DNA from: Cellvibrionaceae bacterium
Lineage (GTDB): Bacteria; Pseudomonadota; Gammaproteobacteria; Pseudomonadales; Cellvibrionaceae
Reading direction: 5' to 3'
Assembly: GCA_050289485.1 (NCBI GenBank)
Contig: JBNKFV010000029.1
Location: 21,810-61,809 of the forward strand
DNA length: 40,000 nt
In this document: piece by piece, positions 7,638 to 37,707 of the stretch
Layout: each line of letters opens with the position of its first letter
Numbering within the stretch: position 1 is the stretch's first letter
Translations under genes and position numbers: made by a program
Notes under the pieces: model-generated
Told to the model about the DNA's origin: nothing
Databases searched by the model: none
What the model saw: only the letters and a program-made list of their open reading frames with translations

Positions 7638-7675
7638 TAGAGCGACTTGAGTTCACGAAATCTCTGGTACGCCTG

Positions 7676-20215: not shown

Positions 20216-20295
20216 CAAAGCCAAGCACAATTCATGTTAAAAACACGCATGGGCTGGGCCTCGCTGACGCTCGGCATGTGTTGGCTGTGTTAGGC
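20210..20295 (+). repeat. attC-like recombination site 3
   Basis: TAACAAAGCCAAGCACAATTCATG pairs with CATGTGTTGGCTGTGTTAGGC, leaving unpaired G and ATT bases in the way attC extrahelical bases do. It ends in GTTAGGC, a perfect GTTRRRY, at 20289-20295. Confidence 0.55.
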
Positions 20296-20309
20296 TTTAC
20301 CGATGTTTG

Positions 20310-20340
20310 AAAAACCATACCACTTGTGTGGTATGGTTTT
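20310..20340. terminator. Bidirectional rho-independent terminator
   Basis: AAAAA-CCATACCAC-ttgt-GTGGTATGG-TTTT. It sits between the cassette array (+) and the esterase gene (-). Confidence 0.8.
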
Positions 20341-20356
20341 CGATGAGGCGGTTGAT

Positions 20357-22261
20357 TTACAACTTTTTGATCTGAAATGGCAGTGCTGGCAAACCTGCGT
20401 CGTTATATAGATTGATAAGGGGGAAGTCGGCCCAGGCATATTTCAGCGCAGAAGGATGCGTTACTTTATCGCTCCAGACCTGAACGGTTTTACCCGTAAT
20501 CTTGGCCTTGGCAACATGGAAAATTCCATCTGGTCCGGCAATGATAAAGCCTCTTACCATAGTGCCTTCCTTGAGTTTCAGTTGCTTGCCAGCGTGGTCA
20601 AATGTTACAGAGACAACCTTGCCCCTAATGCTATGTGACCGATATGTGGGCCCCTGGCTTGAAACCTTTTCGTGAAAGCTGACTCGCCGGGCTTCGCCCC
20701 AAAGCCTTGCCGCGACATCCTGTTTGTTAAGCGGATGGATATTGTCCTGCTCACCAATATCAATGGCAGTAGCCATACCAGTCTCGGGTAGCGACAGTGC
20801 CTGGGCCTGCATATCCCGCAACAGCGCCCATTGGCTGTCAGGCTGTAAATCCTGGGCCTGTAAAAAGCCTGCCAGTTGAACGAATAAAAAGCTGAAGTTG
20901 TCCCGCCATTGTGTACGCCAGTCCTGGATCAGCATCGTGAATAAATCACCGTATTGAGCTGCTTGCCCAGTGTTGCTTTCGCCCTGGTACCAAATAACAC
21001 CGCGTAAACCGTAACCCTGTATAGGACGAATCATGGCGTTATATAAAAAGGAAGGTGTCCATTCAAAGCGCGTCGTTTCAGGCAGGGGCGGTTCTACTGT
21101 ATTGTTGTATAGCCAGTCGTCACTCAAATCAATTTTTTGGTCGCCAGTTTGCAGATATACCTTCCCTTCTATCCCTGCCGAGGGTTGGTTGTCCCAGGAG
21201 TCCCCAACGCGAATGGTTATCAGGTTTTGGCCTTTCTTTAATATGCCTGGTGCAAGAACATGGCGTGAGCCATGTGTCTTCCAGTCTTCCTGAGCAATCA
21301 GCTTTTCGTTAACCCAGATGAACGCTTCCTGCGAGAGATCACCAAATTCCAATATGGCTTCGTCTTTGTTGGCTGAATCGAGAGTAACTTCACGCCGTAA
21401 CCAGGCCTCGTCATCAAATGTTGTAGTGTTTGGCAGACGTTGTTTGGTCCAACCGTCCACGGGATAGTCAAAGCGGTAAGCCCCCGTCTTAAGTGCATCT
21501 TCTTTACTATTCAAGCGGCGATAGAATTCTTCTGCATTCTTGTCGTTTTCAGCAAGTAAAGTAGGCCAGTCGATATCACCTTTGTACAGTTGTTCTGTTT
21601 TTTCTCGGTAGGCGGGAAGTTTGAGTAATGCGCCTTTACTGAGCCAGGCTTCAGCCGGTGTGCCACCCCAGTTGTCATCGATTATGCCGACTGCGACGCC
21701 TTTTTCCTGATGGTTTTTTAGCGCAAACAGATAGGCTATGGCTGAAAAGTTAGCGGCGCTTTCGGGTGTCGCCTGCAACCAATTTCCATCAGAGAGATCT
21801 TGTTTTGGGGTTTCTGAAATTTTATTTTCAACTTCGAAAAAACGAATTAGCGGATAGTTGGCCTGTTTGATAATTTGATCTGAATGGTTAATTCCCCAGC
21901 CGAGTTTTAACTCCATGTTAGATTGGCCACCCGCTAGCCAGACATCACCAAAATAAACGTCATTTATCGTAGCCTTGCCATCACCATTGAGTTCCAATGT
22001 GTAGGGTCCGCTGGCTTTTTGTGGGGCTATTTCTATACGCCACTTACCCGTGCCATCACTTTTTCCAGAGAAGGTATGTTTGTTAAATGTCAGAGAGATG
22101 GCTTTGTCAGGTGTAGACCAGCCCCAAATCTCTACGGTCTTGTCTCGCTGCAATACCATGTGGTCAGAAAATATTTTCGCTGGTTGTATATCCGCTCGAG
22201 ATATACAGGCAAAGGGGATAAGAAGAGCACCCAAAATATACCGTTGAAAATGCACGCGCAC
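20357..22261 (-). CDS. Secreted sialate-O-acetylesterase-like (SASA/DUF303) carbohydrate acetylesterase
   Basis: GTG start with an AAGGAG SD. Signal peptide ILGALLIPFACISRA. SASA-type motif GDVWLAGGQSNME and the later GVIWYQGESN. Confidence 0.8.
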   Translation of the reverse strand: MRVHFQRYILGALLIPFACISRADIQPAKIFSDHMVLQRDKTVEIWGWSTPDKAISLTFNKHTFSGKSDGTGKWRIEIAPQKASGPYTLELNGDGKATINDVYFGDVWLAGGQSNMELKLGWGINHSDQIIKQANYPLIRFFEVENKISETPKQDLSDGNWLQATPESAANFSAIAYLFALKNHQEKGVAVGIIDDNWGGTPAEAWLSKGALLKLPAYREKTEQLYKGDIDWPTLLAENDKNAEEFYRRLNSKEDALKTGAYRFDYPVDGWTKQRLPNTTTFDDEAWLRREVTLDSANKDEAILEFGDLSQEAFIWVNEKLIAQEDWKTHGSRHVLAPGILKKGQNLITIRVGDSWDNQPSAGIEGKVYLQTGDQKIDLSDDWLYNNTVEPPLPETTRFEWTPSFLYNAMIRPIQGYGLRGVIWYQGESNTGQAAQYGDLFTMLIQDWRTQWRDNFSFLFVQLAGFLQAQDLQPDSQWALLRDMQAQALSLPETGMATAIDIGEQDNIHPLNKQDVAARLWGEARRVSFHEKVSSQGPTYRSHSIRGKVVSVTFDHAGKQLKLKEGTMVRGFIIAGPDGIFHVAKAKITGKTVQVWSDKVTHPSALKYAWADFPLINLYNDAGLPALPFQIKKL

Positions 22262-22310
22262 GTTGATACTCCTTGGTGAATGGTGGTTGGTGGAAGTTGT
22301 TTATATTCAG

Positions 22311-23924
22311 TTAAGCGAGTTCGGGTAAATGTTCCGTGCTCCTTGCCTGGCGCCGTTTGATCAGCTCCTGCTCTATGTGATTCATCCTCGATTCATTCAA
22401 TGGGTAAATCATCATTATAACGGCGGCACCGAAGGCAAAGCCTGCCGGGATCCAGCTCATGAGTAGTTTTAAGCCGGGAAGTGCCTGGATTGCTGTTGCT
22501 GGACTGCCGCCGTCATAACCGTAGGAAGCCAGCACCAGTAAAATTAATGCACCGCCAAAACCGCCGCCGGTTTTATTGATAAATGTGCCCGCGGAAAAAA
22601 AGAGTCCAGTTGCCCGGCGCTGGTTTTTCCACTCTGAAAAATCTGCCGCATCACTGAGCATGCTGAAGAATAATACTGGCATGATTGCGGCAAAAATTTC
22701 AGAAATACAGCCTAAAGAAAAAAGTAATGAGACCTGTTGTCGGTCGACGAGTGACAGGCATCCTGTGAATATTCCCCCTAAAAAAAGAGATGCGATGAAA
22801 AGGTTTTTCTTGCCAAATATTTTTACCAGGCATCCGGTAAATAACGCCGTAATCATTGAAACAATGAGTAAGGCTATAAAATAAAGCCCGGTTAACGTGT
22901 TGTTATCTATGGGAATGTCAAACCATAGGAATTTGAAATTCCACGGTTCAATTTGAATGAAATATTTGAAATAGTAAGCGATAGATCCTTGCTTTATGCC
23001 ATTAAACATCATAAACAGAAAGCCAATGGATAGCAGTACCCACCAGGGTTTGCTGGTAATTAAATCACGTATGTCGTGCTGCGTTCTGCCCAGCTCTGTT
23101 GCTGGCTTTTGTATTAGATGACGCGCAGAAAAAATAGTAATGCTTATTGCCGCTATAAAGAATAAGCCAGAATATATTTCGCGGTAGTAAAAAAATAACG
23201 TGATGGCTGAGAGCGGAAGTAAAATGAATAGAAGATTTAAGCACAGGTCTTTAAGATCATCGCCTAAACTCGTTTTTTCTAAGCGCTGAGGGATTACGCG
23301 TTCTTTTGTTGTAAAAAAAGTTATCAATAGAAGCGAGACCAAAAGGGCGGCAAACAAGTACATAGTATGTTGATAACCGACCTGCTCGTTACCTTCGCCA
23401 AAATACTCGACCAGCTTTGGTAGAAAGCCAGTAATTAATGCGCCGCCCATAAATGCACCAAAAAATCTCCAGCCAGATAATATGCTGCGTTCAGAATGGC
23501 TGGATGTCATGACACCCATTAACGCGGAGTAGGGAACATTATTGATGGTGTATGAAAGTGTTAATCCGATGTAAGTCGCGTAGGCCCATATTAACTTTCC
23601 CGTTTGGCCTAATTGCGGAGTGGAAAAGCTCAAGATCATAAACAGACCCAGGAGTGGCGCCGAGAATAATATCCAGGGGCGAAACTTGCCCCAACGGGTA
23701 TGGGTTCGATCGGCGATCATACCCATAATAATGTCGGTAATTCCGTCGGAAAGCCGTACCAGCAAAATTAATAATGACGCAGCGATCGCAGAAATTCCTA
23801 GCACGTCGGTGTAAAAAACAGCCAGGTAGGCCAGGGCGCCGCGCCATACTAGGTTGGCAGCTGCATCACCCATGGCATAGCCGAGCTTTTCCGTCATTGG
23901 GAGCTTTTGGTTGGTTTCGTTCAT
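22311..23924 (-). CDS. Glycoside-pentoside-hexuronide (GPH) family cation symporter
   Basis: The N-terminus EKLGYAMGDAAANLVWRGALAYLAVFYTDVLGISA is typical of MelB/XynP-type GPH transporters. The protein is polytopic and hydrophobic throughout. Confidence 0.85.
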   Translation of the reverse strand: MNETNQKLPMTEKLGYAMGDAAANLVWRGALAYLAVFYTDVLGISAIAASLLILLVRLSDGITDIIMGMIADRTHTRWGKFRPWILFSAPLLGLFMILSFSTPQLGQTGKLIWAYATYIGLTLSYTINNVPYSALMGVMTSSHSERSILSGWRFFGAFMGGALITGFLPKLVEYFGEGNEQVGYQHTMYLFAALLVSLLLITFFTTKERVIPQRLEKTSLGDDLKDLCLNLLFILLPLSAITLFFYYREIYSGLFFIAAISITIFSARHLIQKPATELGRTQHDIRDLITSKPWWVLLSIGFLFMMFNGIKQGSIAYYFKYFIQIEPWNFKFLWFDIPIDNNTLTGLYFIALLIVSMITALFTGCLVKIFGKKNLFIASLFLGGIFTGCLSLVDRQQVSLLFSLGCISEIFAAIMPVLFFSMLSDAADFSEWKNQRRATGLFFSAGTFINKTGGGFGGALILLVLASYGYDGGSPATAIQALPGLKLLMSWIPAGFAFGAAVIMMIYPLNESRMNHIEQELIKRRQARSTEHLPELA

Positions 23925-23969
23925 GACTATCTCAAGAGTTAAGGGTGAAACACTGAATACGAGTAAACA

Positions 23970-25358
23970 CTATTCGACGCTATTTTTTTCTATTAGATTT
24001 TGATACCAGCGTGCGCTGGCTTTTGGTGTTCGTTTCAATGTTTGATAGTCAACGTGGTGAATGCCAAAGCGCTTGGAATAACCCAAGGCCCACTCAAAGT
24101 TATCCATAAAGGACCAAAGAAAATAACCGCGCAGGTTTACACCACTTTGTATAGCTTCGTGGCAAGCTTTAAGGTAGCTACGGAAGAACGCTATCCGACG
24201 CTCGTCATTAACTTGACCATCAGTCACTTCATCGACAAAACTACAACCATTTTCGGTGATATAAATAGGAGGGTTGGCATAACGTTGAGCTAACCACTGT
24301 AACAGTTTTTTGCATCCCCAGGGCACAATGGCCCAGTCCATGCTGGTTAATTCCCAGTTGGGGTCTTGGGACAGCGTGACATCTTGATCGTCGCTCAATC
24401 CACCGTTGCCATATACTGTTTGCTCAGGGGTTTCTCCACGAGCATCTGCTGCATACAATGTGGTGTAATGATTTAAACCAAAGAAGTCGGATGAGTGCTG
24501 AATCAGTTTGCGTTGTTCTGGTGTAATGGTTGGCAAACGATTGCCAAGTCTTTTTTTCATCGTTGCTGGATAGTCACCCAAGTAGATAGGGTCAGCAAAC
24601 CAGCCAATAAAAAATTCCAGTGCTCTTGTCGCGGCGGTTTTGTCCTCTGCGCTGTCGGTGAGTGGTTCGCGCCAGTCGCAGTTATTGGTGATACCGATCA
24701 CCCCTTTTTGACGTGATTGAAACCGTTTGCGATAGACCTGCACGGCTTTGGCGTGGGCGAGTAGTAAATGGTGACCAACGAGGTAAGGTTCGGTGTTGGA
24801 TATTCGTCCCGGTGCAAAAACGCCTTGGCCGTAGCCTAAGATAGATACAACCCAGGCTTCGTTAATGGTAATCCAATGCTTAACCCGATCGCCGAGGTGT
24901 TCAAAACACACGGCAGCATAGTCAGCGAACAGGTCTGAAATCTGTTCATCTAACCAGCCACCAAATTCGGTTTCCAGGGCTTGAGGTAAATCCCAATGGT
25001 AAAGGGTAATCCACGGCTGGATATCGTTTTTGATGAGTTCGTCAACCAGGTCGGAGTAAAATTGCATGCCTGCAGCGTTGAAGCTATCGGTGTGGCCGCT
25101 CGGTAAAACACGTGGCCAGGAAATAGAAAAACGATAGGCTTTCACGCCCATTGTTTTCATTAACTGCACATCTTCCCGAAACCGATGGTAGTGATCGCAG
25201 GCTTTATTCCCGTTCTGGTTTTGATAGACCTTGCCGGGTAGTTGACAGAAGTTATCCCATATAGACGGACCTTTGCCATCGGCAGTACTGCCACCTTCTA
25301 TTTGGTAGGCTGAGGTGGCGGTTCCCCATATAAAATCATCTGGAAAAGTAGCAGGCAT
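23970..25358 (-). CDS. GH1 beta-glucosidase (cytoplasmic)
   Basis: FIWGTATSAYQIEG, acid/base region HWITINEAW, nucleophile region IYITENG. No signal peptide. Confidence 0.92.
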   Translation of the reverse strand: MPATFPDDFIWGTATSAYQIEGGSTADGKGPSIWDNFCQLPGKVYQNQNGNKACDHYHRFREDVQLMKTMGVKAYRFSISWPRVLPSGHTDSFNAAGMQFYSDLVDELIKNDIQPWITLYHWDLPQALETEFGGWLDEQISDLFADYAAVCFEHLGDRVKHWITINEAWVVSILGYGQGVFAPGRISNTEPYLVGHHLLLAHAKAVQVYRKRFQSRQKGVIGITNNCDWREPLTDSAEDKTAATRALEFFIGWFADPIYLGDYPATMKKRLGNRLPTITPEQRKLIQHSSDFFGLNHYTTLYAADARGETPEQTVYGNGGLSDDQDVTLSQDPNWELTSMDWAIVPWGCKKLLQWLAQRYANPPIYITENGCSFVDEVTDGQVNDERRIAFFRSYLKACHEAIQSGVNLRGYFLWSFMDNFEWALGYSKRFGIHHVDYQTLKRTPKASARWYQNLIEKNSVE

Positions 25359-25570
25359 AGATTCCTCGTTACAACAATGTAGGCGACTTAGTGAAAGTTA
25401 TCGGCATATCGTCTACCGGTTTTGCGACGGCGAATTATGGGGTCTAGCCACCACACCCGCAGCGAGTTCGATGATTGGCTTATTTTGGTTGGTAGTAGCT
25501 TGTGTGCCGATTCGAGTGGGTCATATGCTGCCTTTATTATCGAATAGAACGGCTTGGTAGCTGTTTGACG

Positions 25571-26065
25571 CTACTCGAATTTAATTCTGGTTATGTAGTA
25601 AGGCTTGGTTTCTGTCTCCATGCCTTGAATTATCACGCCGTCTATTATCGTGTTTTCAGCCCCAAGATCTTTTAAGGAGATCTCTGCCAGCGCCCAGTTT
25701 TTTTGCTGAAGTTCAATACGGTAGCCCGCTTCGATGGGCTTTTCATCCTGAGATAATTTGACCATCAGTTTTTGTCCACCATCGGCGCCTCCGTTGATAA
25801 CAAATGTCAACTTGCTAAAACCTTCGGTAGAAAACGGGTCATGGTGGAGGTATAGGGCTGTCCAGGGGGCGCCTTCCACTTTAATCGGTTGTGCATTGGC
25901 AATTGGGACAGACAGTGTGACTTTGGCCCAGCTCCAGTCAGACCAGTTATTTTTAAGTGCGTCGTCATATACGACAATAGGCGGTGTTAATGCTTCTGCA
26001 GAAGCAAAGCTAATGGATAGGCAGGCGAGCGCAGCAATTGCGTGAAGGGAAAGTTTAGACACCAT
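25571..26065 (-). CDS. Small secreted protein of unknown function (possible carbohydrate-binding beta-sandwich)
   Basis: ATG at 26065 gives the signal peptide MVSKLSLHAIAALACLSISFASA|EA. The mature part is about 140 aa and aromatic-rich (NNWSDWSWAKV). The upstream part of the 206-aa ORF lies in AT-rich intergenic DNA and is rejected. Confidence 0.6.
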   Translation of the reverse strand: MVSKLSLHAIAALACLSISFASAEALTPPIVVYDDALKNNWSDWSWAKVTLSVPIANAQPIKVEGAPWTALYLHHDPFSTEGFSKLTFVINGGADGGQKLMVKLSQDEKPIEAGYRIELQQKNWALAEISLKDLGAENTIIDGVIIQGMETETKPYYITRIKFE

Positions 26066-26220
26066 TTGCTCCTTAATTTTATTTTTACTTATAATATATA
26101 AAACAAATTTATTTAATCTATTATAGACAGGTAAGAAAGCAAATAAAACCACTAATTTGCCTTCGGTATTGATAGCGGATTGCCAGAGCAAAAACCTCAG
26201 GTTGTGGTACGCAGAGCTTG

Positions 26221-27726
26221 TTATGGATTGCCTTTTATTGAGGCCAGGAAGTCGGTATGTAGTGGTAGCGCCTGGGCTGCCTGTGCCGTTTGCTGGCGCA
26301 GCATGGCGAGAATCTCGCGTATTTTGTTGGGGTCGGTCTGGTCAACCAGGGCGCTATATCCCTCGGGGTAGATACCTTGGCCGAGCAGTACTGCCAGCCA
26401 GCTGGTTATTGAAAAGAGGTCTTCTTCCCGGCGTTTTAACTGGCCAGCTGCTCGAAACAAATTAACTTTGTTCTCCAGGCTGGGTGTGAAGCCAATAGTT
26501 TTACGTTCCTGCCAAAAGGGGTCGTTGTCTCTGTTATTAGCAGCATAATGCAGTATTAGAAAATCCCGGATATTTTCAATTTCTACCATTCCCATACGGT
26601 TGTATTGGTCAATCAAGGGTTGCTCGAAACGTCGTGACGGGAAAAGATTCAGCAACCTGCCAATGGCCGATTGAACAAGATGGATGCTGGTTGATTCAAG
26701 CGGTTCCAAAAAGCCAGAGGATAAGCCAATGGCAACGACGTTTTTTTCCCAGAGCTTATTTCTGCGCCCGGTAGTGAAGCGGATAAGGCGGGGATCGGCA
26801 AGTGGGGCTCCGTCGATTGCTGTCATCAAGGTTTGTTCAGCTTCACTGTCACTGATATGAGTGCTGGAATATACGTAGCCGTTACCGGTGCGATGCTGAA
26901 GTGGGATGCGCCATGTCCAGCCGGCGGCTTGCGCTGTGGATCGGGTATATGGAATCGGCTCTTCTATTTTGGCGGAAGGAACCGCTAGAGCGCTATTGCA
27001 GGGTAGCCAATGAGACCAGTCGGTGTAGCCAACCTTTAAGGTCTGTTCGATGAGCAGGCCCCGAAACCCAGAGCAGTCAATAAACAGATCTGCCTTCAGC
27101 GCGCGTCCGTCTTCCAGCACAACGTGAGTGACGTGCCCGCTATCCGAGTCCAGTTCGGCAGCGAGAACGCGTCCTTCATGGCGTGTGACCCCGCGCGCTT
27201 TTGCCAGATTACTGAGATAGGATGCGTAGAGCGAAGCATCAAAATGGAAGGCGTAGGACAAACGTGCCAGTGGGGAGGTGGCGGGCTGCTTGCCGGGGCG
27301 TGCAAAGCGCTTTGCGCGGGCGAGTTGTGCGTTAACACTGTAGTCGTCAATATCACCCGCGTATCCGTCATTGTTGGCTTTTAGCCAATAGTGGTGAAAA
27401 TCGGTGGCGTCGATGGGTACGCCATAGCTGCCGAAAGGGTGGAGATAACTATGGCCCTGGCGTTGCCAGTTCACAAACTCGATACCCAGTTTGTAAGTAG
27501 CCTCTGTGGCACGGACAAATTCATTCTCGTCGATGCCGAGCATACGGTTATAGGCCTGAATAGGGGGTATGGTTGCCTCGCCGACGCCGATAATGCCAAT
27601 TTCATCGGATTCCACCAGTTCAATTTTTACCGTTTTTAATATCGTCGCCATCGCGGCGGCGGTCATCCAGCCTGCGGTGCCGCCGCCAACAATCAGAATG
27701 TTGCGAATAGGTTCTTGTTGTGTCAT
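26221..27726 (-). CDS. Tryptophan-halogenase-family flavoprotein, paralog 1 (full motif set)
   Basis: GGGTAGW (GxGxxG), GVGEATIP, Lys79 in ATYKLGIEF, FIDCSGFRG, GWTWRIPLQ (WxWxIP), GFLEPLESTSI. Confidence 0.85.
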   Translation of the reverse strand: MTQQEPIRNILIVGGGTAGWMTAAAMATILKTVKIELVESDEIGIIGVGEATIPPIQAYNRMLGIDENEFVRATEATYKLGIEFVNWQRQGHSYLHPFGSYGVPIDATDFHHYWLKANNDGYAGDIDDYSVNAQLARAKRFARPGKQPATSPLARLSYAFHFDASLYASYLSNLAKARGVTRHEGRVLAAELDSDSGHVTHVVLEDGRALKADLFIDCSGFRGLLIEQTLKVGYTDWSHWLPCNSALAVPSAKIEEPIPYTRSTAQAAGWTWRIPLQHRTGNGYVYSSTHISDSEAEQTLMTAIDGAPLADPRLIRFTTGRRNKLWEKNVVAIGLSSGFLEPLESTSIHLVQSAIGRLLNLFPSRRFEQPLIDQYNRMGMVEIENIRDFLILHYAANNRDNDPFWQERKTIGFTPSLENKVNLFRAAGQLKRREEDLFSITSWLAVLLGQGIYPEGYSALVDQTDPNKIREILAMLRQQTAQAAQALPLHTDFLASIKGNP

Positions 27727-27745
27727 GGGTCTTTTCCGTTGGTTT

Positions 27746-29212
27746 TTATGCCTGGCTCTTGCTGGATGCTATTCGCGGGAGAGCGTCTGTGTAGGCCGGA
27801 CAGTCCTGAACCACCCTGTTTATACTTGCGCTGGATTGATTGAGAATGGCCCGTGATTGGGTTTTGTCAACGGCGTGGACCGCCGGATCCAGTCCGGTTG
27901 GTCGAAGGCCCAGACCGATCAGCGCGGCGCGCCAATTGTCGATAGTGATAGCGCTTTCCGCATAATGCGGCAGGCTGCCGCGCCGCAAAAACTGCTCTAA
28001 CCTGTGGGCCAGACTTTCCGGTGGCGGTGATTCTTGAGCCGCTCTCCACATTGGCCCCTCGGGTTGCCCCGAATGGCGGTAGTGCAAGGCGTGGAAATCA
28101 CGCATCACTGCATCGGCCAGAGCCGTGCGGCGGTTATATTCGGCAATCAGATTTGGTTGGCAATCGCGCCCTGGTAGTAGTTCAAGGGCGCGCAAAATAG
28201 ATTCGTGGGCGATCTGGAGCGTGCTTCCATAGAGGGGGCCGGGTGTTGCCGCAGCATCACCAAAGGCTACAACATTGTGCACCCAGCTGTTGGTGCGGCG
28301 GCCAGGCCGGAATGCCATCGCGTCCAGTTCGTCTGTGCGCAGACAGGCTGCTGCTGCGTTTTCGCTGGTGAAACTACTGTGGTAGTTAAAGCTGCTGTGC
28401 AGACCGTTCTGTCCCGGCATATTCCAGCGCCAGCCGTCGGGCAGCGCCGTGATCGTATCGATAAGGTCGGGCGGGCATTGTGTTCGCCGCTGGTCGAGTA
28501 GTTGTCGATCACAGGGGATCCACTGGCTCCAGTCTTCAAACTGGTCTTCCAGCGTCGACAGCAGAGGGGCTTGCGGGCCCGCGCAATCGAGGAACAGGTC
28601 GGCACTGAGTTGTTGTTGGTCGGAGAGAGTGATACTGGTTATTTTGCCGTCTGCGCTACGCGTTGTGCTCACCAGGGTTCCTGGAACAAATGTGATGCCT
28701 ACGTGCCGCGCCAGGGAAACCAGACGTTTCAGATACCCCTGCAGATTGAATCGCAGACTGTACTCTGATGCCAACAATGGTTTGAATCGGCCGGCGAGAG
28801 CCAGCGCGCCTGCAAGTGAGTGGGCGTGGTAGGGCGAACCTTCGTCTTCAAGTCGCAGCCAGTGTTGATGGAAGTGTGATTGCGCTACCGGTACGCCGTG
28901 TTTGCCATGGGTATATAGCCAGTCGCCGCCGGCCTGGTTCCAGTTTTTAAAGCGGGTGGCAAACCAATGACTGCCACCCGCGCGCTGAAACATACCGGCT
29001 TCGTCCATACCTATGCGCCGGTGAAACTGCAGAATTGATTGCGGCGCAACTTCCTGTCTGTCGGCCAGAGCCCCCGAGTGATTGGGTGTCACGACCACCT
29101 TGATCGGCGTGTTTGGTAGCGCGCGGCGAAAGGCTATCGCTGCTGACAGGCCAACAATGCCGGCGCCAAGAGTAACGATGGAGCGTAGAGGTTGCGGGGT
29201 TGGCAGGTTCAT
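27746..29212 (-). CDS. Tryptophan-halogenase-family flavoprotein, paralog 2 (degenerate catalytic residues)
   Basis: GAGIVGLSAA (GxGxxG). No GEATIP. Trp83 (SHWFATRF) aligns without gaps to the catalytic Lys of its neighbours. GWRWNMP replaces WxWxIP. PGPLYGST replaces EPLEST. Its start overlaps the paralog 3 stop by ATGA. Confidence 0.75.
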   Translation of the reverse strand: MNLPTPQPLRSIVTLGAGIVGLSAAIAFRRALPNTPIKVVVTPNHSGALADRQEVAPQSILQFHRRIGMDEAGMFQRAGGSHWFATRFKNWNQAGGDWLYTHGKHGVPVAQSHFHQHWLRLEDEGSPYHAHSLAGALALAGRFKPLLASEYSLRFNLQGYLKRLVSLARHVGITFVPGTLVSTTRSADGKITSITLSDQQQLSADLFLDCAGPQAPLLSTLEDQFEDWSQWIPCDRQLLDQRRTQCPPDLIDTITALPDGWRWNMPGQNGLHSSFNYHSSFTSENAAAACLRTDELDAMAFRPGRRTNSWVHNVVAFGDAAATPGPLYGSTLQIAHESILRALELLPGRDCQPNLIAEYNRRTALADAVMRDFHALHYRHSGQPEGPMWRAAQESPPPESLAHRLEQFLRRGSLPHYAESAITIDNWRAALIGLGLRPTGLDPAVHAVDKTQSRAILNQSSASINRVVQDCPAYTDALPRIASSKSQA

Positions 29213-30750
29213 ATGGTCGTCTCCGCAGTAATGGCTGCATCCATGTTGCGGATAACGTCATCATGACTGGGCATGCCCCTGACAAGTTGCTTGATATCGT
29301 GGCGTAACGTTGCGAGTGCGCCTGCCAGTTTTTCTGCTGAGGGAAGGTTGGCACGCTGATCCCATTGCTTGGGAATGATGCCCTGACCCAGTAGAACGGC
29401 AATCCAGCTTGGTTCGGCAAATAGACCCTGCTCGTATTTTTCAATGGTGGCTGAATGGGTCCATAAATTGATTTTCTCTTTCAGACTGTCGGGCACTTCC
29501 ATGGTTCGAACATGGTTCCAAAAGCTGGAGTCGTCGCGGGAGGTGGCATGATAGTGAAGAATCAGAAAGTCCCGGATGCGGTCATATTCCATATCCACGA
29601 GTCGATTAAATTCATCTCTGTCGGCGTTGTCGATGCGTCCTGCGACCGGAAACAGTTCTATCAGGCTTGTGATGGCGGCCTGTGCCAGGTAGATGCTTGT
29701 TGACTCCAGTGGTTCTAAAAATCCACTGGCAAGGCCGATTGAAACCACATTTTTAACCCAGGAGCGTTTTCGTCTGCCCGCGTTAAAGCGCAGTATTCGA
29801 GGGTCGGCCATAGGCTGCCCTTCGAGCGAGCTGAGAATCGCATCAGCGGCTCCTTCATCGGAGAGTTGTGAGCTGGAATAAACATAACCGTTCCCCACCC
29901 GGTGTTGGAGCGGAATTCGCCAGCGCCAGCCTGCGGGCATCGCTATTGCCCGGGTGTAAGGTTCAATTGCCCCCGGCGGTGATGTGCAGGGCACCGCAAT
30001 TGCCCGGTCGCAGGGCAGCCAGTGCGACCAGTCCTCCTTTGGCTCCTCCAGGGTTTTGCCAATCAATACACTCGCGAACCCTGAGCAGTCAATGAAGAGG
30101 TCTCCTTCAATAAGGCGGCCGTCGGCCAGTTGCAATGCGGTTATATTGCCGGTGTCCGGGTGTTGGTGGGCGGCTGTCATTTTGCCTTCGATGCGGGTAA
30201 CACCGCGTTTTTCGGCGTAGGCGCGTAGATACGGTGCAAAAAGTGTGGCGTCAAATTGATAGGCGTGGCCGTAGCTACCCGCCAGGGTGTCGGTATCTTC
30301 TGCAGGTAAAGAAAAACGGCAGGCCTTGGCCATTGCGACTGCCAGGGAATAATCGGCTATGCCATCTTTGGCGCCTTCGGCCCGGGCGCGCAGCCAATAA
30401 TGATGAAACGCAACGCCTGCCAGTGGCGAGCCGTAACTGCCAAACGGGTGAATGTAACTGTCGCCGATTTTGCCAAAATCGCGGAAATCGATGCCGAGCT
30501 TAATGGTGGCATGGGTTGCACGTAACACATCACTTTCATCGAGTTCCAGTTTTTTGATGAAGGCCCGAATACTGGGGATTGTGGCCTCGCCAACGCCGAC
30601 TATGCCAATGTCCTCTGACTCCACCAGTGTGACGTTGGTGACGCCGGGTAGAATTCGGGAGAGTGCCGCAGCTGTCATCCATCCGGCAGTGCCGCCACCC
30701 AAAATGATGGTCCGCAAGGGTTTGTGGTGGTGCGGCGACTCGATACCCAT
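29209..30750 (-). CDS. Tryptophan-halogenase-family flavoprotein, paralog 3 (full motif set)
   Basis: GGGTAGW, GVGEATIPS, Lys84 in ATIKLGIDF, FIDCSGF, GWRWRIPLQ, GFLEPLESTSIYL. A GAGGTGAT SD lies upstream. Confidence 0.85.
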   Translation of the reverse strand: MGIESPHHHKPLRTIILGGGTAGWMTAAALSRILPGVTNVTLVESEDIGIVGVGEATIPSIRAFIKKLELDESDVLRATHATIKLGIDFRDFGKIGDSYIHPFGSYGSPLAGVAFHHYWLRARAEGAKDGIADYSLAVAMAKACRFSLPAEDTDTLAGSYGHAYQFDATLFAPYLRAYAEKRGVTRIEGKMTAAHQHPDTGNITALQLADGRLIEGDLFIDCSGFASVLIGKTLEEPKEDWSHWLPCDRAIAVPCTSPPGAIEPYTRAIAMPAGWRWRIPLQHRVGNGYVYSSSQLSDEGAADAILSSLEGQPMADPRILRFNAGRRKRSWVKNVVSIGLASGFLEPLESTSIYLAQAAITSLIELFPVAGRIDNADRDEFNRLVDMEYDRIRDFLILHYHATSRDDSSFWNHVRTMEVPDSLKEKINLWTHSATIEKYEQGLFAEPSWIAVLLGQGIIPKQWDQRANLPSAEKLAGALATLRHDIKQLVRGMPSHDDVIRNMDAAITAETTI

Positions 30751-31037
30751 TTCTTGATCACCTCGTTATGTCGTTATTTTAGTTCGGTAGTACGGGTGCT
30801 GCGCACATATATCATCCAGTCTCGGCGATATTCGTCAACCATTAAATTAAAACAATTTGTTTTTTTATTGAAAAGGGTCGCGTATGGAATTATATTGATT
30901 GGGCAAAGTGTTAAGGCTTTCTTCGGGTCAGGAGCACGAGGAAGGTTTGTCTGGTAGGGCGGTCGGACCCATTGATCGCAGTGTCTGCCAAGACCGACGC
31001 AAGAACATATTTATAAAAATAATCGGAGGAGGCGGTA

Positions 31038-34000
31038 ATGCCTAAACAAGATCAGTGTCTACGTGACGCTATTTCCCAAGTTTTGCGCAAGCTTAGTATC
31101 GGTGTTTCAACCATTTCTTTTGTCTGCGCGGCTCAATCAGGCTTTGCTCAGGAAACGGTGAATAACAGTACCGCTAGTGACGCAGTAGATTCGGCGGCTG
31201 TGGATGGCATGGAGTTGCTGGAAGAAGTTGTTGTTAGTGGGATTCGTCGCAGTCTTTCTACTGCACAAGATCTTAAGCGTGACTCCGATACTGTCATTGA
31301 TGCCATTACTGCTGAAGATATTGGCGCCCTTCCTGATATGTCGGTAAACGAAGCACTTCAGCGTGTTCCCGGTGTCGCTATTACGCGCTTTGCGGCAGCC
31401 AGTGATACACAGCATTTCTCGGTAGAAGGTTCCGGGGTTGTGATTCGTGGGTTGGATTATGTTCAAAGTCAGTTTAACGGTCGCGATACGTTTTCTGCAG
31501 ATGGCGGTCGCGCTATTAGTTTTAATGACGTGGCACCAGAGCTTGTCGGTTCCGTAGAGGTGTTTAAAAACCTGACGGCCGATATGGTTGAGGGTGGTAT
31601 ATCCGGTATCGTTAACCTGAATACCCGTAAGCCACTTGATCAGGATGGCCAGGTTATCTACCTGTCGGTTGATAGTAATTATGGGGACTTCTCCGAGAAA
31701 GCTTCGCCAAGTGTTACCGGGCTATATAGTAATAGCTGGGATCTGGAAAGTGGTGGGCGAGTTGGTTTTCTGGCCAGCGCCACATCCTCCCAGCTTAAAA
31801 GCCGCAGCGACTCCGTATTTGTAACATCCGTATTGCCGCGACCTATTTCTGATACGGATACTTTCCCTGTGCCAGAGGGGTTTGACCGCGTGTATGCGCC
31901 GCTGGGTGCGGGTGTGCGCTCGCAGGATTTTGATCGAAAGCGCACTGGCTATGCAGCGGCTGCACAGTTTGAATCTGCTGACCAACGTTTACTTGCCACA
32001 GCGCAATTCTTGCGTACAGACGGTCACAATGCCTGGGTAGAGCATACCACCGAAGCTGCAGTGTGGTATCAGGATGTTGATCGTACATTCCCTGCCGAGG
32101 GTACTGACTACACCTACGATGAGAACGGTGTATTTACCAGTGGTGCGATTCGTTATCCCGATTGGTATCACTGGGATAATTCGATCGGCGGTTTTAATGA
32201 GGCGTTCCAGAAAAATGGTATCCCTACACGGTTTTCTAACCGCGGCGTTGTAACGGATTCGGTTACCGACGATTTTAGTATCAATGTTAAGTATGAGGTG
32301 AATGATCGGCTGCGCACTAACTTCGATCTTCAATATGTGAAATCGACATCGAAAAATACTGACATCTCCATTGAGACCTATACCTACTCCGATATGGATC
32401 TTGATCTCACGGGTGACATTGCTCAGTTGGACTTTAGCCAAGGTGAGTTTGCATCGGGTGAAACAGTTACCTCCGAAGAATACATGACAGACCCCAATAG
32501 TCTGTATTTCGGTAATGCCATGACTAATCGCGCTGACAACGATGGTGAGGAGTGGGCTTTTCGCATTGATGCTGAGTACGATTTGAGCGACGACGGCTTC
32601 TTCCGTAGAGCGCGGGTAGGTTTGCGTTATGCAGATCGTGATCAAACCGTCAGAACCAATGACTATAATAACTGGGGTGCAGTTAGCCAGTTGTGGACCA
32701 GTGGTGGGCCACAAACGTTTGCTGATATAGATCCTTCTTTATATGAAGTTTATTCGTACACCAACTTTTTCCGCGGCGATTCACATCTACCACCTTCAGC
32801 AAATTTTCTTAGAGGCAACGTAGCTGAAGAATACGATACCTATCAGCAGTTGATGCGTGAACTGACTGCTGCTGGTGGTGGCGGTTATACGCCGTTAGAA
32901 GACCGCGATTGTGTGACCACGAAGGGTTTTTTCTGTGACAACGAAATTTACCGTAACACTGAAACAACGGATGCCGCCTATGTTCGTATAGACTTTGCTA
33001 TCGACGAGTTGGGAGACGGTATGTCATTCGACGGTAATGTGGGGCTTCGCTACGTGTCTACAGAGACCAACTCATACGGATCCAGTACGTTTCCTAACCT
33101 GGACGCTATTAAAGGTGGCTATGACACTGTTGAGGAATATTGCGCGGCGGCTCTGTCTGACCCAAACCCAACCAGTTCACCTAATGCCATCTGTTCGCTT
33201 GGCGCTGCGGAAAGGGCAGACATTATTGCCTATGCCGATGGCTCGACTGCTGCCAATATCGCGAAGAGTAATTATGATTCCTGGCTGCCAAGTTTGAATT
33301 TGCGTTTGGGCGTCACAGAAGAGGTAAATTTGCGCTTTGCTGCATCCAAGGCGATTTCGCGACCGAAGTTTAATCAGTTGCGTAATTTCCTGACGCAGTC
33401 GACTGCAACGACGACGTCGTCTACCGAATTCGGAGGATTTCAAATTTCGTCCGGGACAAACCCCTACCTGAAACCGGTAGAAGCCAAGCAATATGACCTT
33501 ACCGCTGAGTGGTATTTTTCTGAAGTTGGCTCCTTGACGGGATCGTTATTCTATAAACAGTTGGATAACATTATCCTCGACTCTGGCTTTTCGCAGCAGA
33601 CCTATGAGAATAACGGCGTTACGCAAGACGTTTTGATTGTCGGGCCGGCTAATACATCAGGCAAGGGAACTGTTAAAGGGTATGAATTGGCCTACCAGCA
33701 GACTTTCGATTTTCTGCCCGGTATCTTGAGCGGCCTTGGTATGCAGGCGAGCTATACCTATATCAAGCCTAGCAGTTTGCCGAATCAACCTCAGGACGGT
33801 GACACTACTGTACCGTATGATGTTGAAGGTGTTCAGGAAAGCCTGCCTTTGGCTCAATACTCCGAGCATAACGTAAACTTTACTACGTTCTACGAGGTTG
33901 ACAACCTATCGGCTCGCCTGGCCTATAGCTGGCGCTCTGAGTATCTGTTAACCGTTCAGGATTGTTGTTTCCCGTTTCTTCCTGTGATGACCGATGCTAC

Positions 34001-34187
34001 GGGCCAGCTTGACGGTTCAATCTTCTACACCGTCAATGACAATCTGAAGATTGGTTTCCAGGCTAGCAATATCCTTAATGAAGTCACGAAAACAAACTAC
34101 GTTCTAAATGCAGAAGGTGGGTCTGCGCCGAGAGGTTATTTCACTAACGACCGTCGCTACTCCATTACTGCTCGCATGAAGTTCTAA
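31038..34187 (+). CDS. TonB-dependent outer-membrane receptor (carbohydrate-type)
   Basis: GGAGGAGG SD and a signal peptide. Plug region EEVVVSGIRRSLSTAQDLKRDSDTVIDAITAEDIGALPDMSVNEALQRVPGVAITR. The 1049-aa beta-barrel has a C-terminal aromatic residue (..ITARMKF). Confidence 0.92.
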   Translation: MPKQDQCLRDAISQVLRKLSIGVSTISFVCAAQSGFAQETVNNSTASDAVDSAAVDGMELLEEVVVSGIRRSLSTAQDLKRDSDTVIDAITAEDIGALPDMSVNEALQRVPGVAITRFAAASDTQHFSVEGSGVVIRGLDYVQSQFNGRDTFSADGGRAISFNDVAPELVGSVEVFKNLTADMVEGGISGIVNLNTRKPLDQDGQVIYLSVDSNYGDFSEKASPSVTGLYSNSWDLESGGRVGFLASATSSQLKSRSDSVFVTSVLPRPISDTDTFPVPEGFDRVYAPLGAGVRSQDFDRKRTGYAAAAQFESADQRLLATAQFLRTDGHNAWVEHTTEAAVWYQDVDRTFPAEGTDYTYDENGVFTSGAIRYPDWYHWDNSIGGFNEAFQKNGIPTRFSNRGVVTDSVTDDFSINVKYEVNDRLRTNFDLQYVKSTSKNTDISIETYTYSDMDLDLTGDIAQLDFSQGEFASGETVTSEEYMTDPNSLYFGNAMTNRADNDGEEWAFRIDAEYDLSDDGFFRRARVGLRYADRDQTVRTNDYNNWGAVSQLWTSGGPQTFADIDPSLYEVYSYTNFFRGDSHLPPSANFLRGNVAEEYDTYQQLMRELTAAGGGGYTPLEDRDCVTTKGFFCDNEIYRNTETTDAAYVRIDFAIDELGDGMSFDGNVGLRYVSTETNSYGSSTFPNLDAIKGGYDTVEEYCAAALSDPNPTSSPNAICSLGAAERADIIAYADGSTAANIAKSNYDSWLPSLNLRLGVTEEVNLRFAASKAISRPKFNQLRNFLTQSTATTTSSTEFGGFQISSGTNPYLKPVEAKQYDLTAEWYFSEVGSLTGSLFYKQLDNIILDSGFSQQTYENNGVTQDVLIVGPANTSGKGTVKGYELAYQQTFDFLPGILSGLGMQASYTYIKPSSLPNQPQDGDTTVPYDVEGVQESLPLAQYSEHNVNFTTFYEVDNLSARLAYSWRSEYLLTVQDCCFPFLPVMTDATGQLDGSIFYTVNDNLKIGFQASNILNEVTKTNYVLNAEGGSAPRGYFTNDRRYSITARMKF

Positions 34188-34193
34188 TAAAGT

Positions 34194-34245
34194 GACCCCG
34201 GTTCGCTGTTGTAAGTGAGTCGGGGTCTATCTTGAGTTTTTTATT
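34194..34245 (+). terminator. Possible terminator after the TBDR gene
   Basis: GACCCCG-20 nt-CGGGGTC stem, followed after a gap by TTTTTTATTT. The long loop and the distant T-run make this weak. Confidence 0.35.
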
Positions 34246-34346
34246 TGGTAAGCCGAAAGGCTTTAACAAAACATACCTGCGCTATGTTTCTTGTAGCTTA
34301 GGCATGTACGCTTTTTATTTTCTTTTTGGTGTTAATAAGTTTTTGT

Positions 34347-35276
34347 ATGACTGAATTAGCGGAATATGTTGCGAACTGCGATGCGCATTTGTACGCGGGC
34401 GTTGAACTTGGTGGAACAAAGTGCATTTGTACGCTGGCTTCTGGGCCTGCGCGCATTGTTGAACAGGTTACCTGTTCTACCAAGGGCGTAGAAGAAACCT
34501 TGTCATGGATTGAGACGGTGCTTTCAGGCTGGTGGCAACATGACCAGTTTGCCGGATTAGGTATAGCCAGTTTTGGCCCTGTCGATCTTAGTCCCCACTC
34601 GCCAGGTTTTGGCAAGGTTCTCGCGACCAATAAAAAAGGTTGGGAAGGTGCGGATGTGGCAGGTCGTTTAAGTCGGCCGTTTGATGTGCCGATGGTATTT
34701 GACACCGATGTTAATGGCGCTGCATTAGCGGAGATTATGTGGGGGGCTGGACAGGGCTGCGAAAATTTTGCCTACATCACAGTCGGAACAGGTGTCGGTG
34801 TTGGGCATGTTGTCCACGGCCGCCCGGCAAGAGGTTTGTTGGGGCATAGTGAACTTGGGCATATGCTGGTGCCGCGTTTGGCGGGTGATCAGTGGCCAAG
34901 TGCGTGTGCATTTCATGACAATTGTGTGGAAGGACTGGCTTCGGGCAGTGCCATAAAATCTCGTGTTGGTGCAGCCGGGCTGGATAGTATTCTACCTGAT
35001 GATCCTATTTGGGACGTGGTATGTAGCGGTCTTGTACATCTGTGCCATGCACTGGTTTGTGCGACAGGTCCTGCGCGTATTGTTATGGGTGGTGGCGTTA
35101 TTGATCGGCAGCCACACTTACTGGAGCGTCTAAACGTCATGCTCGAGGAAAGTCTTGGTGGATACATTTTACTGCCTTCAGGTCAGCCCTACATTACCCG
35201 TCCCGGTCTCGGTGATCAGGCGGGGCCACTTGGACCCATTGCCATGGCGCGCAGTGCGGCATTAGTTGTGATTTAA
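34347..35276 (+). CDS. ROK-family sugar kinase (gluco/fructokinase type)
   Basis: GVELGGTKCIC (DxGGT-type phosphate-1 motif), VGTGVGVG, and ELGHMLVP...CAFHDNCVEGLASG (ROK signature with a Zn-site-like Cys/His pattern). There is no HTH, so it is a kinase rather than a regulator. The start is uncertain: TTG 34326, ATG 34347, or an internal TTG. Confidence 0.8.
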   Translation: MTELAEYVANCDAHLYAGVELGGTKCICTLASGPARIVEQVTCSTKGVEETLSWIETVLSGWWQHDQFAGLGIASFGPVDLSPHSPGFGKVLATNKKGWEGADVAGRLSRPFDVPMVFDTDVNGAALAEIMWGAGQGCENFAYITVGTGVGVGHVVHGRPARGLLGHSELGHMLVPRLAGDQWPSACAFHDNCVEGLASGSAIKSRVGAAGLDSILPDDPIWDVVCSGLVHLCHALVCATGPARIVMGGGVIDRQPHLLERLNVMLEESLGGYILLPSGQPYITRPGLGDQAGPLGPIAMARSAALVVI

Positions 35277-35357
35277 GTTTGCTTATCAGCGATTGTCTAT
35301 AACTAAACTACACTCCCGGATTTTATTGGGAGATTTCTCCTACCTGTTACTTATCGT

Positions 35358-36407
35358 ATGCCCAATAAAAAATCATTTTCTATAAAAATTAGTTTGCTGT
35401 TACTTTCGGCAGTTGCCGGGTTTATTTTTCTTAACGGATGCAGCTTGAGTCGTGCAGAATCATTGAGCAGTGATAACGCCACTGCCATCCCCGCATTTCA
35501 ATCGGCGGCGCGGGTGGGGCCATGCGTCAATATGGCCAATCACTTGGAAGCGCCGGTTGAGGGCGCGTGGGGCAGGCCTGTTTCTGAAACTGACTTCGCC
35601 GATATTGCGGCAGCTGGTTTTGCAACAGTTCGTCTTCCGGTGCGCTTTTCAGCGCATGCGCTGAAAAAATTCCCTTACACAATTGACCAGAAGTTTATGG
35701 CCCGCGTGGATCATTTAGTACAGTTGGCGCGTGCATCCGGTTTAAAGGTTATTCTCAATCTACATAACTATGAAGAGTTGTATGCGGACCCTGCTGCTCA
35801 CACTGCAAGGTTTGTCGAAATGTGGCGCCAAATTGCTGAACATTTTAGTCGTCAACCGGCGTCGGTCTGGTTCGAACTTATCAATGAGCCTCACGATGCG
35901 CTAAGGAATCATAATTTACATTCATTGATTGACCCAGCGCTGGTTGTAGTACGTTCAAAAAATCCTACACGGAAAGTCGTGATTGGTGGTGATCACTGGA
36001 GTAATGTGGCGTCGCTGGCAACTCTGGACCTTCCTGACGATCCTAATGTTATTGCCACCTTCCATTATTACGAGCCGTTTAATTTCACCCATCAAGGTGC
36101 AAAATGGATAGTGCCTACACCGCCGATGGGAACGGCGTTTGGAAGTCCGGCAGATATTGACAAGCTGCGGCAGGATGTCGGCAAGGTACAAGCCTATATG
36201 GCACGTACAGGTAAGCCAGTTTTGATGGGAGAGTATGGTGCCTATGAGAGTATTTCTCTCGCTCAGCGTGCTCAGTATTATGGTGCTGTACACAACCAGT
36301 TTCAGCAAGCCGGTATTGATGGTTGTGTCTGGGGCTACACCAACAGCTTTCCAGTGCGTAAAGGTTCAGTGTGGCTCCATGAAATTTTACGGGCCATAGG
36401 GTTGTAG
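35358..36407 (+). CDS. GH5 endo-beta-1,4-glucanase-like lipoprotein
   Basis: Lipobox-like FIFLNGC. GH5 acid/base region VWFELINEPH and nucleophile region VLMGEYGAY. Confidence 0.85.
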   Translation: MPNKKSFSIKISLLLLSAVAGFIFLNGCSLSRAESLSSDNATAIPAFQSAARVGPCVNMANHLEAPVEGAWGRPVSETDFADIAAAGFATVRLPVRFSAHALKKFPYTIDQKFMARVDHLVQLARASGLKVILNLHNYEELYADPAAHTARFVEMWRQIAEHFSRQPASVWFELINEPHDALRNHNLHSLIDPALVVVRSKNPTRKVVIGGDHWSNVASLATLDLPDDPNVIATFHYYEPFNFTHQGAKWIVPTPPMGTAFGSPADIDKLRQDVGKVQAYMARTGKPVLMGEYGAYESISLAQRAQYYGAVHNQFQQAGIDGCVWGYTNSFPVRKGSVWLHEILRAIGL

Positions 36408-36442
36408 TCTGCTGACGGAGCCGCAAGCCACTGGCATCAGTG

Positions 36443-37666: not shown

Positions 37667-37707
37667 CTTTCAAAATCGTTATAGGTGGCATTTTGCCTTC
37701 TGCCTGA

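Follow-up and report, generated by a model that had tools for sequence, protein, structure and literature searches.

Three flavin-dependent halogenase paralogues encoded in a carbohydrate-utilization locus of a Cellvibrionaceae bacterium represent three old orthologous groups, not recent duplicates, and one of them, which lacks both the catalytic lysine and the catalytic glutamate, is translationally coupled to and co-inherited with one active lineage. The genes lie within a 40,000-nt stretch of GenBank assembly GCA_050289485.1 (contig JBNKFV010000029.1, positions 21,810 to 61,809 of the forward strand; hereafter the window). An earlier inspection of this DNA that ran no database searches (the sequence-only reading) had described three same-strand paralogues, divergent from a TonB-dependent receptor (TBDR), with an ATGA stop/start overlap and a 19-nt gap, and each of these features is confirmed. 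The explanation we favor, to which we would give about an even chance, is that the genes encode an old, co-inherited cytoplasmic module of three orthologous groups in which the Ku and d proteins form a heteromer, with d as a non-catalytic partner, and act on a substrate other than tryptophan. The genes and junctions concerned are as follows.

29209-30750, minus strand: H3 ("Ku"), 513 amino acids (aa), an intact flavin-dependent halogenase paralogue (PF04820, 616 bits)
29209-29212, minus strand: ATGA junction in which the H3 stop codon overlaps the H2 start codon, in the context ACCATATGAACC
27746-29212, minus strand: H2 ("d"), 488 aa, a pseudo-halogenase of a conserved family (PF04820, 265 bits)
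27727-27745, minus strand: 19-nt spacer between H2 and H1
26221-27726, minus strand: H1 ("Kd"), 501 aa, an intact BrvH-type halogenase paralogue (PF04820, 638 bits)

All three proteins score far above the 21-bit gathering score that serves as the cut-off for PF04820 (Trp_halogenase). H1 and H3 are 49% identical to each other, while H2 shares 30% identity with H1 and 31% with H3. Because the Rossmann motif starts within residues 9-18 of each protein, an N-terminal signal peptide is not possible and all three are expected to be cytoplasmic.

Residue correspondence was established with MAFFT alignments to PrnA, using a PrnA sequence that is identical at 538/538 positions to PDB 2apg. PrnA K79 aligns with K79 of H1, K84 of H3, and W83 of H2, and PrnA E346, the second glutamate of EPLEST, aligns with E344 of H1, E349 of H3, and Y328 of H2. 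H1 contains GGGTAG (residues 14-19), GVGEATIP (47-54), K79, WTWRIP (270-275), and EPLEST (341-346), and H3 contains the equivalent GGGTAG (18-23), GVGEATIP (52-59), K84, WRWRIP (275-280), and EPLEST (346-351); FIDCSG is also kept in both. The hallmarks and lysine positions that had been assigned by eye to the first and third paralogues are thus borne out. H2 retains GAGIVG (16-21), which fits GxGxxG, as well as FLDCAG and WRWNMP, in which methionine replaces the isoleucine of WxWxIP. In place of the GVGEATIP loop it has DRQEVAPQ with a deletion, and it lacks the conserved ES, with its acidic residue, at the end of strand 2. The EPLEST segment, and with it the halide site, is also gone (from the RebH and PrnA structures, we take the backbone of this segment to bind halide), and FGDAAA (317-322) replaces the GLSSGF of the active paralogues. 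What had been said of the second paralogue, that it has W83, WRWNMP, and no glutamate and keeps the FAD motif, therefore holds for GxGxxG but not for the second flavin motif. A separate HMMER alignment of H2 to BrvH gave the same columns as the alignment to PrnA, and this agreement settles the Lys/Glu correspondence that the sequence-only reading had proposed to check.

According to an earlier report, every flavin-dependent halogenase identified has conserved FAD1 (GxGxxG) and FAD2 (GVGEATIP) motifs (PMC8269204). FAD1 is present in H1, H2, and H3, whereas FAD2 is present in H1 and H3 and absent both from H2 and across the d family. The catalytic Lys and Glu are split in the same way, with both in H1 and H3 and neither in H2, and WxWxIP is found in H1 and H3 while the d family keeps only GWRW. 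Because Lys and Glu are both absent, the name halogenase is not appropriate for H2. H2 was modeled with AlphaFold2 using 36 family members; the model has a pLDDT of 92.4 and a pTM of 0.92 and superposes on Xcc4156, BrvH, and the structure 9luq at TM scores of 0.89-0.92, and this confident match to solved relatives points to a halogenase fold that is whole but whose active site is disabled. Judged by its motifs and its predicted structure, H2 is a full-length, well-folded protein that would be unable to perform halogenase chemistry.

The family to which H2 belongs is itself conserved. Its nearest relatives are ∼42% identical and come almost entirely from the Sphingomonadales, and across the family GxGxxG is kept, DRxPxxLP stands in the place of GVGEATIP, DPLxxx in the place of EPLEST, and LGDAA in the place of GLSSGF. 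The residue at the catalytic Lys column varies (R, H, L, W, or S), ADLFLDCxG and GWRW are retained, and the family has conserved motifs of its own, LLPGRDC and EYNRR. Open reading frames (ORFs) of the d type are intact in more than 80 genomes and have 20 invariant columns. The median ratio of nonsynonymous to synonymous substitution rates (dN/dS), calculated over 197 pairs of Sphingomonadales loci, is 0.21 for d as compared to 0.12 for the upstream Ku partners; a dN/dS of ∼0.21 indicates that selection maintains the d family, which is not decaying. When 1.84 billion cluster representatives were searched with a profile, 1,990 matches at E ≤1e-30 were returned, and of the best 149 of these, 119 lack the Lys and/or the Glu at the catalytic columns, indicating that lysine-less paralogues are numerous. 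The earlier suggestion of a pseudo-enzyme subunit is strengthened by these results, since H2 belongs to a whole family that lacks the catalytic Lys, is under purifying selection, and is coupled to and co-inherited with one active paralogue.

Genomic loci, 80 in number and mostly from Sphingomonadales, were retrieved through the d family, their ORFs were called, and PF04820 homologues were classed by the state of their Lys and Glu residues. In nearly every locus retrieved in this way a Ku-type gene lies directly upstream of the d-type gene. Two architectures recur: in one, the TBDR, Ku, and d genes are co-directional, with a gap of ∼70 nt between TBDR and Ku, and in the other, the TBDR is divergent from Ku, d, and Kd, which is the arrangement seen in the window. 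In 75/75 cases the upstream partner of d has a better score to H3 than to H1 (medians of 719 and 521 bits), and the downstream partners are H1-like in 26/29; the nearest relatives of H3, 63-67% identical, are again from Sphingomonadales. Stop and start codons overlap by 4 nt at 60/69 Ku-to-d junctions and at 24/26 d-to-Kd junctions; for the remaining neighboring same-strand pairs of genes in these loci the figure is 74/351 (21%). Pairwise distances for Ku and d are correlated with r = 0.93, and the partial correlation controlling for the TBDR is 0.89, whereas the correlation between Ku and TBDR distances is 0.64; d evolves ∼2.2-fold faster than Ku. Among four contexts chosen through H3 homologues only, three (L085, L087, and L088) have d immediately downstream with a 4-nt overlap. 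The position and coupling of d are conserved between alpha- and gammaproteobacteria. What the sequence-only reading had called a conserved module is therefore found in ∼80 genomes, where an H2-type gene directly follows an H3-type gene and is co-inherited with it. One further metagenomic contig (L084, from Logan SRR25194294, GC 0.45) has at 5134-8088 an ORF of 984 aa that joins a lysine-less paralogue in frame to an H1-like enzyme; the ORF directly follows a Ku-like gene, the TBDR is divergent, and the lysine-less half is very divergent in sequence.

The composition of these genes and their relatives also bear on their origin. H2 has the highest GC content (0.585) and third-codon-position GC content (0.611) in the window, H3 is second in GC at 0.549, the whole window is at 0.495, and the closest relatives of both H2 and H3 are found in the Sphingomonadales (Alphaproteobacteria). 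These values and relatives hint at an old lateral transfer into this Cellvibrionales genome, with which they are compatible. The placement in the Cellvibrionales is supported by GcvP, whose homologues in Maricurvus, Exilibacterium, Marinimicrobium, and Microbulbifer are 66-68% identical. A near-identical second copy of the window locus is present in GCA_050304315.1 (L001), and with 0-1 differences per gene between the two copies, dN/dS calculated from this pair was uninformative.

The trio is embedded in genes for the uptake and breakdown of carbohydrates, which are listed here with the intervening features.

31038-34187, plus strand: TBDR of the Xanthomonas/Caulobacter carbohydrate type, with plug and beta-barrel domains (TIGR01782, 643 bits, cut-off 310)
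30751-31037: divergent intergenic region between H3 and the TBDR, with a candidate shared operator
25571-26062, minus strand: 163-aa putative secreted protein of no assigned family, between H1 and the glycoside hydrolase family 1 (GH1) gene, with a signal-peptide-like N-terminus; the gene is in the NCBI record
23970-25358, minus strand: GH1 beta-glucosidase (Pfam)
22311-23924, minus strand: GPH/MFS_2 glycoside transporter (Pfam)
20357-22261, minus strand: SASA-type carbohydrate esterase (Pfam)
34326-35276, plus strand: ROK sugar kinase
35358-36407, plus strand: GH5
36443-37666, minus strand: ROK-family regulator
37899-39182, minus strand: glucose/galactose MFS transporter (gluP)

These genes supply what defines a carbohydrate utilization locus containing a TBDR (CUT locus), namely a TBDR, degradative enzymes, an inner-membrane transporter, and a sugar regulator. 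As the sequence-only reading had stated, no nonribosomal peptide synthetase (NRPS), polyketide synthase (PKS), or flavin reductase is encoded among the window ORFs of at least 150 aa, with ORFs 3145-6672, 13023-13709, and 14722-15660 judged from their translations only.

The same kind of setting recurs elsewhere. In 59/81 loci the halogenase block has a TBDR no more than 700 nt away, and of those without one at this distance, eight are truncated contigs, giving an untruncated total of ∼73. The most frequent recurrent neighbors, counted by locus, are the following.

GH43: 29 loci
Cupin_8: 18 loci (of ∼80)
SSF transporter: 17 loci
GH9: 16 loci
GntR regulator: 16 loci

Other recurring neighbors are GH2, GH31, GH97, GH172, aldose epimerase, carboxylesterase, sugar transporters, sugar-acid catabolic enzymes, and ROK regulators, and no NRPS, PKS, or other biosynthetic neighbors were found across the ∼80 loci. 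The module thus travels between carbohydrate loci of differing specificity. In eight loci from Sphingomonas spp. (L041, L043, L045, L050, L051, L060, L065, and L083), Ku-d closes a co-directional sugar-acid operon that encodes an SSF transporter, 2-keto-3-deoxygalactonate kinase (DGOK), and KDPG aldolase, with GH43 and GntR genes nearby and no TBDR within 8 kb, showing that the module is not strictly tied to the receptor. The association with TBDRs noted in the sequence-only reading therefore holds for most loci, but ∼14 have none, and the tie is to carbohydrate loci generally; the assignment of the genes to carbohydrate loci and not to tryptophan secondary metabolism is upheld by the carbohydrate-active enzyme (CAZyme) and transporter genes beside them in ∼80 loci and by the absence of the tryptophan-binding loop described below. 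The idea that the module modifies the TBDR itself is weakened by the same ∼14 Ku-d loci.

Comparison with characterized halogenases places the active paralogues outside the tryptophan-specific enzymes. The alignment shows in H1, H2, and H3 a 14-residue deletion over the PrnA loop that carries Y443, Y444, and E450, which, from the PrnA structure, we take to hold the amino-acid end of tryptophan. Because this loop is absent, none of the three is a tryptophan halogenase in the strict sense; Trp3 and Trp4, the other tryptophan-binding motifs considered, are missing from their nearest relatives, which are group C enzymes. H1 and H3 share with PrnA, RebH, PyrH, and Thal the fold, GxGxxG, GVGEATIP, the Lys/Glu pair, WxWxIP, and EPLEST; the window proteins differ from these enzymes in lacking the ∼14-residue loop, in their much lower similarity, and in a carbohydrate context instead of a biosynthetic cluster. 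The best PDB matches of H1 are 9luq (519 bits), BrvH (498 bits), and Xcc4156 (465 bits), as compared to ∼250-300 bits for PyrH, PrnA, and RebH, and the best solved structure for H3 is BrvH at 471 bits. BrvH (6frl), Xcc4156 (6y1w), and 9luq are thus the closest solved relatives of both enzymes (450-520 bits), with the same motif set, similarly short substrate loops, and an open site, and K83 and E349 of BrvH correspond to K79 and E344 of H1. None of the solved structures is a Ku orthologue, as Ku orthologues score ∼720-790 bits to H3 against 471 bits for BrvH, and none is of the d type.

BrvH brominates indole weakly (2.5 mU/mg) but not tryptophan, has an open site with a solvent-exposed Lys, was described as having an unknown native substrate, and is encoded next to a second halogenase gene (PMC5945002). 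Xcc4156 is similar to BrvH and brominates indoles in vitro (PMC7336383). Group C enzymes lack the Trp3 and Trp4 motifs (PMC8269204), and the BrvH/Xcc4156-type relatives belong to this group. By homology to them, we infer that H1 and H3 are true flavin-dependent halogenases and that they belong to the non-tryptophan BrvH/Xcc4156 type of group C. Given these structures and in-vitro activities, the description of the genes as functionally undescribed was overstated. In the literature searched, no paper demonstrates a physiological role for TBDR-linked halogenases, and no inactive partner is reported for BrvH, Xcc4156, or 9luq in the searchable literature. The 9luq entry, released in 2026, is named "tryptophan halogenase" and comes from Pseudoalteromonas sp. 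L11, and 9lu2, labeled L11-2, and 9ltb bear the same name; no paper for 9luq, 9lu2, or 9ltb was found in the literature searched.

That halogenases recur beside TBDRs was correctly stated in the sequence-only reading but had already been published in 2010, when alpha- and gammaproteobacteria were described as having a neighborhood that combines SapC, JmjC, and a TonB receptor with between one and three halogenases (Iyer et al., PMC2938197). The halogenases in that study have an intact Rossmann fold and the conserved Lys, no lysine-less paralogue was described, and a role in siderophore-like biosynthesis was predicted (PMC2938197). The window resembles that neighborhood in its tandem halogenase paralogues, numbering one to three there, beside a TBDR and in the classes of bacteria involved, and Cupin_8 occurs in 18 related loci; it differs in having no SapC or JmjC/Cupin_8 matches among the ORFs scanned. 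One locus, from Rheinheimera baltica (L073, 3396-11491), has the classic 2010 arrangement and no lysine-less paralogue, with a TBDR, a divergent halogenase (GVGEGTWP, GWVWDIG, EPLEAS), a 265-aa ORF, a 338-aa ORF, and a BrvH-like halogenase. With regard to the surrounding sugar genes, all defining parts of the proteobacterial CUT loci (Blanvillain et al. 2007, PMC1790865) are found in the window, and its GH1, transporter, and esterase set resembles the Shewanella beta-glucoside locus (BglT, GH, Omp(Bgl); PMC2996990). The main texts of PMC1790865 and PMC2996990 mention no halogenase genes, and the halogenase module is an extra component of the window locus.

In the reading we favor, Ku and Kd would, by homology, use FADH2 from a general reductase together with O2 and halide to form hypohalous acid, and in an open active site the conserved Lys and Glu would guide this acid to a substrate that is electron-rich. 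The d protein would be made in step with Ku by means of the start codon that overlaps the Ku stop, and would join it in a Ku-d heteromer, sometimes with Kd, that would have evolved from the homodimeric state seen in the rest of the family. Other halogenases of the PF04820 type are homodimers, so a heterodimer of paralogues would be a natural derivative. Within it, d may serve as a non-catalytic scaffold, an activator, or a substrate-recognition subunit. Gene order, coupling, co-inheritance, and one fusion make such a Ku-d(-Kd) complex plausible. The module would be co-expressed with carbohydrate-utilization genes, and because of this expression context, which is usually TBDR-adjacent, it probably acts on a non-tryptophan cytoplasmic molecule, which would appear in the cytoplasm during consumption of such glycans; we infer the link to glycan-derived substrates. 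Pairs of an active enzyme and a dead paralogue are an established principle, exemplified by the trypanosomatid AdoMetDC "prozyme". As in prozyme-type pairs, the inactive paralogue here is under purifying selection and is genetically coupled to a specific active paralogue. No halogenase heterodimer with an inactive paralogue is described in the limited open-access literature searched. A more specific form of this proposal, which we put forward tentatively as a possibility and no further, is that Ku-d is an obligate heteromeric halogenase whose dead subunit serves in substrate recognition or activation and which acts on an unrecognized class of substrate during TonB-dependent glycan scavenging. 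Candidate substrates would be an aromatic substituent, an aglycone, or a peptide. If correct, the obligate heteromer would explain why group C halogenases such as BrvH are sluggish alone, and a halogenation step would be built into the carbohydrate foraging of soil and marine Proteobacteria.

Several observations weigh against a heteromer with a non-catalytic d. Two enzymes that act one after the other would also be consistent with the gene order, coupling, and co-inheritance, and BrvH and the Xcc enzymes are active alone in vitro, so that K-type paralogues do not strictly need a partner. Most loci were fetched through d, making the adjacency frequencies conditional on its presence. One of the contexts found through H3 homologues (L086) has a Ku-type gene alone, with no d gene and no TBDR beside it; the H2-H1 junction in the window, with its gap instead of an overlap, is the less common case; and the L084 fusion comes from a single short-read contig and may be an assembly error. 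The ∼14 loci without a TBDR, about one-fifth of the total, lack it despite at least 6 kb on each side (at least 8 kb in most). The searchable literature yielded neither a halogenated product nor a mutant phenotype. Finally, d keeps GxGxxG, ADLFLDCxG, and WxW and carries GDAA, which, in our view, resembles the GD motif of PHBH-type flavoproteins and variant-B halogenases, and with these motifs it may still be capable of dinucleotide binding and of independent activity.

The last point underlies the main rival, in which d is a flavoprotein with other chemistry, for example as a hydroxylase or as an NAD(P)H-dependent flavin-reducing partner providing Ku with FADH2, in a two-step or two-component system. 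This rival, which we regard as rather unlikely although it is to be taken seriously, would account for the retained GxGxxG, ADLFLDCxG, and GWRW motifs, the substitution of LGDAA for GLSSGF, the private motifs LLPGRDC and EYNRR, the purifying selection on a full fold, and the lack of a flavin reductase gene in the window. It is harder to reconcile with the loss of the FAD2 loop GVGEAT and of the acidic residue after strand 2, FAD1 and FAD2 being reported as invariant in identified flavin-dependent halogenases (PMC8269204). Moreover, the residue at the Lys position varies among R, H, L, W, and S, unlike a new catalytic residue, and d evolves about twice as fast as Ku. That d is simply a decaying, functionless duplicate would be in keeping with the loss of all catalytic hallmarks and with its being the fastest-evolving of the three, but this is contradicted by intact ORFs in more than 80 genomes with 20 invariant columns, a dN/dS of ∼0.21, a confident structure model, and a position and coupling conserved from alpha- to gammaproteobacteria, and we give it next to no credence.

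Two further readings concern the product and not d. The prediction of 2010, that such genes make a halogenated, amino-acid-derived, siderophore-like metabolite that is imported by the adjacent TBDR, draws on the conserved halogenase/TonB/SapC/JmjC neighborhood for which that role was proposed (PMC2938197), on the presence of Cupin_8 in 18 loci, and on the classic arrangement in L073. It fits the window poorly and appears improbable here, as genes for JmjC/cupin, SapC, NRPS, or any further biosynthetic function are absent from the window, the receptor is of the carbohydrate type TIGR01782, and the neighbors are CAZymes and sugar-catabolic genes; in addition, relatives refuse tryptophan (PMC5945002) and some loci have no receptor. 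Taken at face value, the PF04820 matches and database names such as "tryptophan 7-halogenase" would make these enzymes tryptophan 7-halogenases for secondary metabolism that lie among sugar genes by coincidence. This annotation is very improbable, being contradicted by scores of 250-300 bits to true tryptophan halogenases as compared to 450-520 bits to BrvH and Xcc4156, by the missing tryptophan-binding loop and the lack of Trp3/Trp4 that characterizes group C (PMC8269204), and by a carbohydrate context that recurs in ∼80 genomes.

Additional features of the window were recorded. In the region between H3 and the TBDR, promoter-like hexamers on both strands flank a perfect 15-bp palindrome, AAAACAATTTGTTTT, at 30849-30863, and a copy with two mismatches at 26100-26114, upstream of the 163-aa ORF, is the sole related site in the window; at up to three mismatches there are seven matches, which is within the shuffled range. 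The palindrome is a weak candidate for a shared operator, for the ROK regulator. A promoter and terminator scan of 20000-38000 gave counts at or below shuffled expectation and thus says nothing on operon structure. The 163-aa protein, which might be a glycan-binding protein, has no match in Pfam, NCBIfam, or PADLOC and does not recur in other halogenase loci. A group II intron-type reverse transcriptase/maturase ORF (RVT_1 and GIIM domains) borders the carbohydrate locus on its left, at 18448-19707 on the plus strand; all Rfam matches to group II intron RNA, if any, stayed below the gathering score. Two cyclic di-GMP (c-di-GMP)-I riboswitch aptamers score above the gathering score of 35 bits: one at 7356-7437 (minus strand, 60.8 bits), upstream of an uncharacterized 164-aa ORF at 6745-7239 (minus strand), and one at 10887-10963 (plus strand, 53.4 bits), upstream of a PilZ-domain ORF at 11000-11494 (plus strand), the latter being a notable pairing of a c-di-GMP riboswitch with a c-di-GMP-binding protein. 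A role in anti-phage defense was rejected, as PADLOC gave zero matches.

The enzyme family, the orphan BrvH/Xcc clade, and the halogenase-TonB receptor neighborhood are already known; new are the three old orthologous groups and the coupling of a lysine-less paralogue to one active lineage, and the limited open-access literature searched holds no earlier description of a lysine-less, Ku-coupled paralogue or of a three-group module. In Xanthomonas, Caulobacter, Sphingomonas, Alteromonas, and related bacteria, genes annotated as "tryptophan halogenase" rank among the most frequent unexplained components of loci for sugar scavenging, and the few members studied so far, BrvH and the Xcc enzymes, are only weakly active on the surrogate substrates used. 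The near-constant pairing of one active lineage with a conserved, co-translated inactive paralogue offers a possible reason for this weakness, namely that assays were carried out without the partner. The question of what orphan halogenases do is now reducible to a defined set of genes for co-expression and deletion. If the pairing is functional, it would be, to our knowledge and within our searches, the first reported enzyme/pseudo-enzyme pair among flavin-dependent halogenases; it would also correct the widespread annotation of d-type proteins as "tryptophan 7-halogenase" and tie halogen chemistry to carbohydrate turnover.

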